DNA from: Haliotis cracherodii
Taxonomy: Eukaryota
Length of the DNA: 64,000 bases
Direction: 5' to 3'
Assembly (NCBI RefSeq): GCF_022045235.1
Contig: NW_027266297.1
Span: 72,168,001 to 72,232,000 of the forward strand
The stretch's first letter is position 1; the number at the start of each line of letters is the position of its first letter. The notes beneath the pieces were generated by a model that worked only from the letters and a program-made list of their open reading frames with translations, made no database searches and was not told the origin of the DNA. Positions 3,320 through 42,412 of this stretch are shown here, piece by piece. Both the position numbers and the translations under genes were made by a program.

Positions 3320-3593
3320 TGTAAAACATACAGTGCCTATCATGGGCGTGTGTTTTAGGATGGTAAACATGCTGGAGCACTGTGGACAATGTTTCTGTCC
3401 ACTCTCACAACAACCAAGGGGTACATGTTCTACCAGATAGGCCCTGTGTGGGCTATAATTCATATTTAGTTTGTCAAAAACCATTTATCAAAACATTTAC
3501 ACAAAAAATGAAAGGTTTCGCTCATCAGTTTTGAAACAACTCTTAAGACAAATGGTACCAGACAGACACTTGTCTAGTTTTTGGTTTGGTTTA

Positions 3594-3770
3594 TTCCAGC
3601 TATATTACAGCGGTCTGTAAATAATCGAGTCTGGACCAGACAATCCAGTGATCAATATCATGAGCATGCAATTGGGATCGATGGCGTGAATCAACTAAGT
3701 CAGCGAGCCTGACCACCCAATCCCCTTAGTTGCCTCTTACGACAAGCATAGTCGGCTTTTACGGCAAGTC
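3594..3770 (-). mobile_element. SINE-like family D, 5'-truncated
   Basis: Homologous to 19003-19250 (ctggaccagacaatccagtgat; gcctcttacgacaagcat). Confidence 0.85.
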
Positions 3771-12114: not shown

Positions 12115-12400
12115 GAGTGAGTGAGTGAGTGAGTTGGGTTTAACGCCGCTTTTAACAGTATTCCAGTCATATCACGGCATGTCAGCTTAATGTGGGGGGA
12201 AAGCCCGAAGTGATGCAGGTCTAAGACGTTTACCACTTCGGTGAAACCCACGAGCATGGGTATGGTGCTGACAAACCTAGAAACATAATCGGGGCGAATC
12301 GGGATTCGAACCCACAATCATAGGTTTCTGGCGTGCCCAAGGGACGCAACTCTGCACAGCGAATCGCGGCGCCTTAGACGACTAGGCCACCCGTGCCCCC
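12115..12400 (-). mobile_element. tRNA-headed SINE family A, full length with TSD
   Basis: Reverse-complement homolog of 11647-11925; TSD acatgactagga at about 12105-12116 and 12402-12413. Confidence 0.92.
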
Positions 12401-18603: not shown

Positions 18604-19002
18604 AAAATGAAAGAGAGGAAGTTACCTTGATGTCAAAGATATTACCCCAAACCACTCCAAGATACAAAAGAACTTTCAGTTCCACTATTGACATAGCCAG
18701 CACATCATCATTCACCTCTGGCCCCGACAATAGCTAAATGCCCCACTTCAGCCTCTGGTTAACACACGTACCAAGTTTGGGTAAAAAATCTTTCAGGTTT
18801 CAAGTTATGCCCTGGAAATGAAATATGGACAGACTGAAGAACGGACAAACAGTTTCAAATATGAAATCTCTTAAATGTGTAGTAAACCCATGTCAGAAAA
18901 TATTTATCACATTGATCTTTTACAACATAGAAACCTGAACAACAGCCATTTTTCAAAATGTTAACCTTACTTGACTGATGAGAACAACCCCATACACAAC
19001 TA

Positions 19003-19250
19003 CCCGTGAAGATCCGGGATAGAATAGGTCTTCAGCAACCCATGCTTGCCGTAAAAGGCGAGTATGCTTGTCGTAAGAGACGACTAACGGGAGTGGTCAG
19101 GCTCGCTGACTTGGTTAATGCATGTCATCGGTCCCAATTGCGTGGATCGATGCTCATGATGTCAATCACTGGACTGTCTGGTCCTGACTCGATTATTTAC
19201 AGACCGCCGTCATACGGCGGGTATATTGGTGAGTGCAAACAAACAGACAA
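19003..19250 (+). mobile_element. SINE-like family D, apparently full length, no tRNA head
   Basis: Same 5' boundary (cccgtgaagatcc) as the copies ending at about 27900 and 59353. Candidate TSD acaactac at 18996-19003 and 19259-19266. Confidence 0.85.
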
Positions 19251-19802
19251 ATATAAAAACAACTACCAGTTGTGGAAAAGTGGAAAGAGTTGGGTTGTTG
19301 TGGAGGACACTATAACATTTTCAAAACAAGCTCTACTTAGTTGCAGTCAGGAAATTCATAGAACAAATTCTGAAAAAATCATATTGAGATGGTCAGTTGT
19401 GAAGACATTCAGTGCTCATGGACACTTTTAGTCAGTAAATGCAAGCTCTATTTTCTATTGTTATGGAGGTTATGAAGTACGGACAACTTATATTCTCCCC
19501 TGAATATCTCAATGTCACATGTCTGTCGGAGTCTACGAGCATTAACCAGAGCCATCTGGAAACTTCAAAATGCAAATTACACCAGAAAGTTGGATATATC
19601 ATCAAGTAGGAATAAAATGTTTTTTTCAAAATGAAAATCCTTTGTAAAACTAATTGAACAAGTCAAACAATGCATTAATGCTCCTCTTCAGTGAGAGAAT
19701 AACTTTCATGATGTAAACTAGACATTTTTGCTGAATAGAAAACCTACTTCATCTGCTGTGTTTGACAATAAAGGAATGGACAACGACAAGTGAATACATA
19801 TA

Positions 19803-27639: not shown

Positions 27640-27900
27640 TGTTTGTTTGTTGTTAAACATCGCACTCATCAATATTCCAGCTATATGACGGCACTGTGTA
27701 AATAATCAAGTCTGGACCAGACAATCCAGTGATTGACATCATAAGCATCGATTCACAAAATTGGCATACGATGACATGTATCAACCAAGTCAACGAACCT
27801 GACCACCCAATCCCGTTACTCGCTCTTATGACAAGCATAGTTTGCTCTTTGGGCAAGCACAGGTTGCAAAGACCTATTCTACCCCGGGTCTTCATAGGTC
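27640..27900 (-). mobile_element. SINE-like family D, full length, diverged
   Basis: Reverse-complement homolog of 19003-19250; (AAAC)n tail. Confidence 0.85.
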
Positions 27901-35995: not shown

Positions 35996-36140
35996 ATCAT
36001 GAACATTGATCTATTCAAGTGGGATGATAGCTATGACATGTATCAACCAAGCCAGCAAGCCTGACCACCCAATCCTGTTAGTCGTTCTTATGACAAGCAT
36101 GGGTTGCTGTAGACCTATTCCAACTTGGATTCTTCAGAGG
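35996..36140 (-). mobile_element. SINE-like family D, 5' half
   Basis: gcctgaccacccaatcctgttagtcgttcttatgacaagcatgggttgctgtagacctattc. Confidence 0.8.
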
Positions 36141-36237
36141 ACATAGCTATGAGTAGTGGTAGAAACAGCATCAGTAGTAATAGAAGTAGTAGTAATACTG
36201 ATGTCTTGTCAGAGAAAAATCTAAATATAATCTGTAA

Positions 36238-42061: not shown

Positions 42062-42412
42062 GGTGGAGGTGAGGTGAAATGGGGTTTAACATCACATCCA
42101 TGCTAATTGCACTTATATAGCAACATGCATGCATGTGTGTGTGTGTGGCTGCTTGTACTAGTCTGGACTGATGCGGATTTATAGCGCTAGCCCACTGAGA
42201 TATCATGCCTCAGTTTAACATGAATACTCCACTCAAAAATAGTATACTCCAGGCTGACCAGTCCTTGTTTTAGCCCCTTAATACCGAGCACCAGACAGGG
42301 TAACTGCAAGTACCATCCTTTAACTTTTCTTGGTATAACGCAGCCGGGGATCGAACCTCTGACCTTCCGCTCTCCAGGCGGATGCTCTACCACTGGACCA
42401 CGGAGGCGGTCT
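42062..42412 (-). mobile_element. SINE family C, full length
   Basis: B-box gggatcgaacc; A-box ctctaccactggacca; homologous to 955-1288. Confidence 0.88.

Follow-up and report, generated by a model that had tools for sequence, protein, structure and literature searches.

The stretch of DNA analysed here, hereafter the window, comprises 64,000 nucleotides of the Haliotis cracherodii genome (contig NW_027266297.1, positions 72,168,001 to 72,232,000 of the forward strand). It contains a family of short interspersed elements (SINEs) in which a conserved RNA module forms the head and is followed by a body and a repeat tail. The best copy is bordered by a target-site duplication (TSD) and further copies lie on the opposite strand in different states of decay (Table 1). 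The modules of four copies start within about 2 nt of one another, as had been noticed in a first-pass annotation of the window. No tRNA or other Rfam family was found to overlap the copies in the window. Other SINE families of the window lie at 55463-55634 (-), 42066-42408 (-) and 12119-12397, and two of them have tRNA-like heads with Rfam and ARAGORN matches at 55557-55628 and 42338-42408. It had been stated that the present family ends in the same tail as the tRNA-headed SINEs. This is true for one of the two: the tail aligns with 55557- at a score of 34 (best of 300 shuffles, 31), but scores only 18 with 42339-, where the best shuffle gave 24. Against the tails of two LINEs of this genome the scores were 29 (best shuffle 29) and 33 (best shuffle 29).

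Table 1. Features of the SINE family and of the fold of its head (positions are those of the window)
Feature	Position	Strand	Evidence or remark
Conserved RNA module, the SINE head	19001-19099	+	covariance model R1 match, 61.2 bits
SINE body and tail, AAAC-type repeats at the end	19092-19258	+	sequence comparison
TSD, 5' copy, 8 bp, final bases overlapping the element start	18996-19003	+	identical to 19259-19266
TSD, 3' copy	19259-19266	+	identical to 18996-19003
Full-length copy	59110-59354	-	88% identity; module (59256-59354) 54.5 bits
Full-length copy, more decayed	27655-27900	-	81% identity; module (27804-27900) 24.6 bits
5' half copy without the 22-nt duplication	35996-36142	-	module (36066-36142) 34.2 bits
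5'-truncated copy	3592-3768	-	family match
22-nt tandem duplication of the hairpin unit (19042-63, 19064-85)	19042-19085	+	read from the sequence
S1 5' strand, pairing with 19015-19018 to give a 5'-terminal H-type pseudoknot; loop 1 is U19007	19003-19006	+	partner test
S2 stem, 19008-14 with 19027-33	19008-19033	+	encloses the S1 3' strand and A-rich loop 3 (19019-26, ending AGAAUA)
P3 stem, 19034-36 with 19066-68 or 19044-46; CCC 19039-41 in the loop	19034-19068	+	covariation
P4 hairpin, 19070-73 with 19081-84, 7-nt loop, then UAA	19070-19087	+	most conserved part
Second pseudoknot, 3' strand, pairing with P3 loop 19039-41	19088-19091	+	partner test p=0.0001, 22 families

The family is very abundant. 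An exact 15-base head occurs at least 21,514 times in the 1.18-Gb genome, copies in tandem repeats included. The two bases before this head are GA in 13,349 cases, A after a base other than G in 4,569, G followed by a base other than A in 1,578 and neither in 2,018, so that a G stands two bases ahead of CCCG in 14,927 of the 21,514 heads. The ends were studied in 103 copies with head and tail, a set which came partly from searches chosen for particular leads. A TSD was detectable in 30 of these copies as compared to 1 of 510 mismatched pairs. The 5' boundary is sharp and lies 0-2 nt ahead of the first stem; among the 30 TSD-defined copies, 20 have a lead of 1-2 nt before CCCG and 11 have a G beyond the TSD. 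From CCCG to TTAAAC the modal length is 248-249 nt (84 copies), to which lead and repeats have to be added. The 22-nt duplication, which had been missed earlier like the P3 stem, is present in 71 of the 103 copies, while 21 have a single unit and 11 were unscored. The hairpin unit of the module also occurs in tandem satellites with periods of about 34 and about 42 nt (L258, L259, L260).

None of the 103 copies has an A box. The first-pass annotation had reported that both A and B boxes are missing, but a B-box-like 9-mer was found near +140, i.e. in the body, in 53 of the 103 copies; in three other families it occurs in 0 of 20, 0 of 16 and 1 of 11 copies. With the A box absent and the B-box-like 9-mer confined to the body, an origin as a tRNA-derived Pol III SINE was rejected. 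The proposal that the head marks the 5' end of a retroposon without a tRNA is borne out.

The fold of the head was studied in a MAFFT alignment of 16 hand-picked non-viral (animal) representatives. In these rows S2, P3 and P4 are paired in 88% of 223 cells and 8 of 14 pairs show two-sided changes, 6 of 7 in S2 and 2 of 3 in P3. The covariation score was 0.42 versus 0.16 (0 of 500 shuffles), and at most 0.13 when slid. Nine viral rows showed two-sided changes in 12 of 18 pairs (0 of 500 shuffles), and all pairs of S2 (7 of 7) and P3 (3 of 3) were changed on both sides. P4 is invariant in both alignments and is therefore without covariation; this invariance is partly by construction, because most of the homologs were retrieved with that core. 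A search of 58 loci in viral contigs gave no convincing variants of the P4 stem, which leaves P4 without covariation evidence.

The long-range pairings were assessed by a register-free partner test covering 14 non-viral and 8 viral families, 22 in all, and since the families are related its p values are not strict probabilities. Pairing of the 5' end with loop A (S1) gave p 0.001 over all families, 0.004 for the viral and 0.41 for the non-viral ones, the last because the non-viral rows are nearly invariant. The support for S1 is thus carried by the viral rows, where the pair 10-19 shows a two-sided change in 3 of 9, and is not significant in the animal rows alone. Loop B and the segment past the junction, the second pseudoknot, gave p 0.0001, although 3 of 8 viral rows show this pairing poorly or not at all. 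These comparisons favour a first element that would be a 5'-terminal H-type pseudoknot with 4-6 bp, a 1-nt loop, 7 bp and an A-rich loop of 8 to more than 60 nt. They likewise favour, as the second element, a 3-4-bp stem whose loop would pair downstream across an inserted hairpin. The strand order supported is S1-S2-S1'-S2'-P3-loop-P3'-P4-junction-PK2'. A divergent second version of the module with different, compensated stems exists in this genome (L253:1451-1532, +). In L040, L051, L064 and their relatives, loop 3 of the first pseudoknot accommodates a GTAA-type microsatellite of more than 50 nt with no loss of the stems or of the AGAAUA end.

The fold differs in part from the one proposed in the first-pass annotation. 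The inner stem is present and covaries, and the GUCG/CGAC hairpin is found as described. The outer stem 19003-07/19087-91 is paired in 45% of cells with no double change; its best slid register reaches 64% and varies between families. Comparison does not support this stem, and in the partner test neither of the two pairings proposed earlier was supported (p 0.25, and 0.11 for the GGG/ACCC pseudoknot). It is probable that both long-range pairings had been given wrong partners. The nested fold is nevertheless the minimum-energy fold of the 19003 copy (z -4.06), and as single-sequence folding of that copy prefers it, both folds may form there. The view that the head does not have HDV topology proved correct, since the supported strand order differs and there is no Rfam match. 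At the gathering threshold no Rfam match to the module was obtained in the window, and at E<=5 ten homolog loci gave only miRNA-type noise on repeats. With two stems that covary and a blank in Rfam, the head, as judged from sequence comparison, is a conserved, structured and pseudoknotted RNA that is absent from Rfam 15, as had been anticipated.

The module is not confined to SINEs. A host LINE contaminating a bacterial assembly was found to carry it upstream of ORF1, with an ORF2 encoding APE-RT-RNase H. Animal-type LINE or SINE sequence, probably host contamination, is present in three bacterial assemblies (L284 in G001, L285 in G002, L286 in G003); upstream of the module in L284, a single LINE, no TSD or ribozyme was found. 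A related ORF1 has 118 matches in the present genome. Upstream regions of 80 were examined and 75 of them (19 of 20 plus 56 of 60) contain the module, 377-669 nt away; in the APE-RT-RNase H LINEs it lies 500-670 nt ahead of the ORF1 matches. Two full-length LINE copies encode APE-RT-RNase H, which is consistent with the I/Nimb group. LINEs with differing ORF1 and 5' UTR lengths (L264-L283, L377-L436) have near-identical first 140 nt (HDV-like ribozyme and module), as if the head had been exchanged or were strongly constrained. At G000:C2:20.9-21.75 Mb about 65 LINE heads lie within 0.85 Mb in both orientations, and further dense clusters occur at C6:4.2-5.6 Mb and C23:35.4-35.9 Mb. Such dense clusters may be transposon-trap (piRNA-cluster-like) regions.

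Directly ahead of the module these LINEs have a 57-nt HDV-like sequence. Its parts could be read as a 7-bp P1 with a G1-U wobble, P2, a 3-bp P3, a 7-nt L3, GG for P1.1 and a J4/2 with C. Two of 4 loci matched the Rfam model HDV-F-prausnitzii, scoring 29.0 and 25.2 bits where the gathering score is 44. The TSD abuts the HDV-like G+1 in 5 of 7 full-length LINEs (by eye), and the flanks diverge at G+1. The LINEs show no extra G ahead of their start (18 of 91). The HDV-like start is whole in 95 of 99 distinct LINE-type modules and partial in 4, and no copy starts at the module; the HDV 3' strand is kept in 99 of 100 among the matches listed, of 606 genome-wide. The SINE head is a separate module that lies 3' of this putative ribozyme and is distinct from it. 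Longer elements containing the head had been named earlier as a point against a ribozyme at this place. Such elements do exist in part, in that the module lies inside LINEs, directly behind a separate HDV-like ribozyme.

Homologs are widespread. Searching for a 17-base core yielded at least 120 metagenome stretches, 9 genome contigs and 5 viral contigs; since the search demanded this core, its invariance in those sets is by construction. Most metagenome matches belong to a few interspersed families with the module at their start. In four SINE-like families conservation stops one base ahead of the C run. In two of them this first base is G (17 of 19 and 9 of 12 copies) and in the other two it is A (19 of 27 and 8 of 12). 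The tails of two metagenome families are like that of the window SINE, and in one family a tRNA-like head follows the module (by eye). In L065, L132 and related metagenome loci the module lies upstream of a tRNA-like head, as in the scallop MESC SINEs, an order which requires the RNA that transposes to begin ahead of the Pol III start site.

Viruses also contain the module. The covariance model was built from the 16 non-viral rows only, and it matched seven RNA-virus contigs (L171, L179, L205, L199, L208, L236 and L244, 6 of them distinct) with 38-72 bits; their ORFs match RdRP or capsid families. In these contigs the module is on the coding strand; it follows the stop of the last long ORF by 5-198 nt, and 82-184 nt separate it from the end of the contig. 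It is in tandem in L171 (second copy 25 bits, cut by the contig end) and in L244 (second copy by eye). A 212-kb DNA-virus contig (L233) has a 58-bit match between two genes, about 140 nt upstream of a long ORF and with an NAD-ligase gene nearby. The remaining 77 of 85 viral loci scored 21 bits or less and are chance core matches. Among 74 further loci one genome contig reached 44 bits, and two DNA-virus-like contigs of 31 kb and 76 kb gave a divergent, fully pairing module at a borderline 22.8 bits (L512:2986-3062, -; L516:353-429, +). Chimeric viral assemblies were considered and rejected: L179 and L205 have the same arrangement, no SINE body or tail adjoins the module, and the stems are virus-specific and compensated.

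Our data indicate that this is a real, uncatalogued RNA module, and the question is what it does for elements of such different kinds. The reading that we favour, giving it somewhat less than an even chance, is that the head is a portable double-pseudoknot module which would block 5'-to-3' exoribonucleases of the Xrn1/Xrn2 type and thus trim and shield the SINE RNA. A host transcript running through a SINE copy would be decapped or cut upstream, and the exonuclease would digest it up to the 5' pseudoknot and stall. A LINE reverse transcriptase could then insert a copy of the leftover RNA, which is about 250 nt long and has a LINE-like tail, into the genome. In LINEs the module could serve as a second shield behind the uncapped HDV-cut end, and in viruses it would yield a short 3' subgenomic RNA. 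Possible as well, but slightly more doubtful, is the wider claim of a new class of xrRNA common to animal retrotransposons and RNA and DNA viruses, by which SINEs would need neither promoter nor ribozyme because the decay nuclease carves their RNA. Release from host transcripts, as put forward in the first-pass annotation, is plausible, with exonuclease trimming more likely than catalysis.

Xrn1 needs a 5'-monophosphate, and a 5'-OH is not a substrate. HDV cleavage leaves a 5'-OH (according to the available part of PMC3383444), and it is proposed that LINE copies keep their ribozyme for this reason. Transcription initiation or self-cleavage at the module edge would lead to loss of the ribozyme in LINEs, which is not seen, and a nuclease stall predicts no such loss. 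The viral position and the tandem copies would match those of xrRNAs by analogy (PMC12397905, in part), and 5' stability has been described as limiting for retrotransposon (R2 donor) RNA (PMC12222951, likewise). A number of observations go against a nuclease block. LINE copies trimmed to the module are not found (0 of 99). The purine-first modules at 5' ends, with the G of most genomic heads, would fit a transcription start or a copied cap, and LINEs are without such an extra G. Xrn1 stops leave a leader of a few nucleotides, and the lead of 1-2 nt is shorter than that. Known xrRNAs are variable in sequence, and the near-invariant 19-nt core would rather suggest a site of protein binding or catalysis. 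The covariation of S1 comes from viral rows only, and the second pseudoknot is missing or weak in some of them. The fold is also without the features that define xrRNA classes 1-3 in the accessible part of PMC12397905.

The purine at the start leads to another possibility, that the head is dual-coded like Pr77 of L1Tc. Its DNA would serve as an internal Pol II promoter with initiation at the purine ahead of the C run, in line with the promoter hypothesis for LP-SINEs (PMC4758252), and the RNA fold would have a separate role. A purine is usually the first base in the SINE family and in four other families, the distance from module to 5' end is fixed, the G beyond the TSD could be a copied cap, and Pr77 itself is a precedent (PMC3383444, in part). 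However, that G may just belong to the master sequence. The stem sequences vary freely with pairing retained, the same sequence persists in RNA viruses, which have no DNA stage, and initiation at the module edge would cost the LINEs the HDV-like ribozyme that 95 of 99 keep whole. We regard such a promoter as unlikely. The sequences would also allow that the module binds a conserved host factor, be it a translation factor, the ribosome or a protein that stabilises RNA. It would then promote the cap-independent translation or the stability of LINE and viral RNAs that lack a cap, and SINEs would carry it to reach the ribosomes that make reverse transcriptase. The hairpin core is near-invariant also in the LINE set found by protein search, the module sits where RNAs are expected to be uncapped, and the copy in the DNA-virus contig precedes a long ORF. 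Alone, such binding does not account for the many independent SINE families whose end coincides exactly with the 5' edge of the module, and we regard it as slightly less likely than the promoter.

Finally, the module could represent a new class of ribozyme, one that would cleave itself just upstream of the first stem, as the first-pass annotation had suggested. A compact double pseudoknot, an invariant core and precise 5' ends would suit catalysis, and the C-Y-R-A junction resembles J4/2 of HDV. Small ribozymes have been described in the UTRs of linear RNA viruses (bioRxiv 10.1101/2024.05.16.594327, in part), and a viral location alone is therefore compatible with catalysis. Nevertheless the viral copies are in 3' UTRs, while those in the available part of that preprint are mostly in 5' UTRs; the putative cut-site bases are not conserved across families and viruses; and no Rfam ribozyme matches. 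As the LINE copies keep their ribozyme (95 of 99) and 0 of 99 start at the module, self-cleavage at its 5' edge is unlikely, and catalysis is the least probable of these readings. Among catalogued ribozymes, HDV was rejected since its order P1-P2-P3-L3-P3'-P1'-P1.1-P4-J4/2-P2' is not that of the module; twister, pistol, hammerhead and hairpin were rejected because their topologies misfit the strand order, the model check being for HDV alone.

If the module does block Xrn1, cellular mobile elements would possess a nuclease-resistant RNA of their own; in the part of PMC12397905 at hand all xrRNAs are viral. It would then represent a third way, besides promoter and ribozyme, to set the 5' end of a retrotransposon, and a compact RNA stabiliser. 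How LP SINEs are transcribed has been a question since 2016, and a covarying RNA fold makes this question testable. Unrelated viruses keep this fold, as do the LINEs and SINEs of animals. Even with one of the rival functions the module would be an RNA motif outside Rfam 15 that crosses the boundary between virus and host.

By function, an xrRNA is an RNA that blocks Xrn1 without the help of proteins, by a ring that surrounds its 5' end. Flaviviral xrRNAs occur in tandem. xrRNAs are pseudoknots in the 3' UTRs or intergenic regions of viruses and function independently of their flanks (PMC12397905, as far as available). The module resembles them in its compact pseudoknot, its 3' UTR or intergenic position in RNA viruses, its 5' strand held in a pseudoknot and its tandem copies. 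It differs from them, as they are set out in the same part of that source, in several respects. Classes 1 and 2 have a three-way junction whose double pseudoknot forms the ring; there is no such junction in the supported fold of the module, and no Rfam match was obtained. Class 3 has a P1/P2 stem-loop and a pseudoknot between loop and 3' segment, and also an apical T-loop L2B and an AGY motif. Neither of the last two was seen by eye in the module, though an H-type pseudoknot is present. The module in turn has a second pseudoknot with an inserted hairpin, and it also occurs in cellular retrotransposons.

HDV-like ribozymes at LINE 5' ends are known from R2, RTE and L1Tc/Ingi (PMC3383444 and PMC5786205, both in part). 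The LINEs of this genome likewise begin with an HDV-like sequence, exactly at G+1. Six LINE clades with 5' ribozymes are given in the available part of PMC5786205 (2018), and I/Nimb is not among them. The conserved RTE 5' UTR domain of Kojima was considered and rejected as a different motif, two core words having 0 matches in the supplement to hand (PMC5786205).

The closest known relatives of the window SINE are the LP-SINEs, described in the accessible part of PMC4758252 from Haliotis (Hdi_LP and Hmi_LP), oysters and Littorina, together with scallop SINEs that have the same head. Their head of about 70 bp is common to the 5' ends of Nimb-17_LMi, I-3_DR and RTE-9_CPB, and was proposed there to be a promoter, with the promoter/ribozyme of L1Tc given as an analogy. 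As here, these elements have a tRNA-less head common with LINE 5' ends, a length of about 255 bp (255 bp in Hdi_LP), TSDs and a tail common with tRNA-SINEs; their variable TSDs and short tandem-repeat tail are likewise found in the present family. The scallop LP head (supplementary Fig. S2 of PMC4758252) shares the core and, as judged by eye, also the stems, which are compensated. The present family fits the published Haliotis LP-SINE, and from length and the scallop head it is probably identical with Hdi_LP. In that part of PMC4758252 no structure, viral occurrence or upstream HDV-like ribozyme is reported for the LP head, and none of the three was found described in the full-text literature, a scope excluding subscription papers, Repbase reports and figures. 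The SINE type is already known, and what appears to be new is the fold, its occurrence in viruses and its place behind an HDV-like ribozyme.
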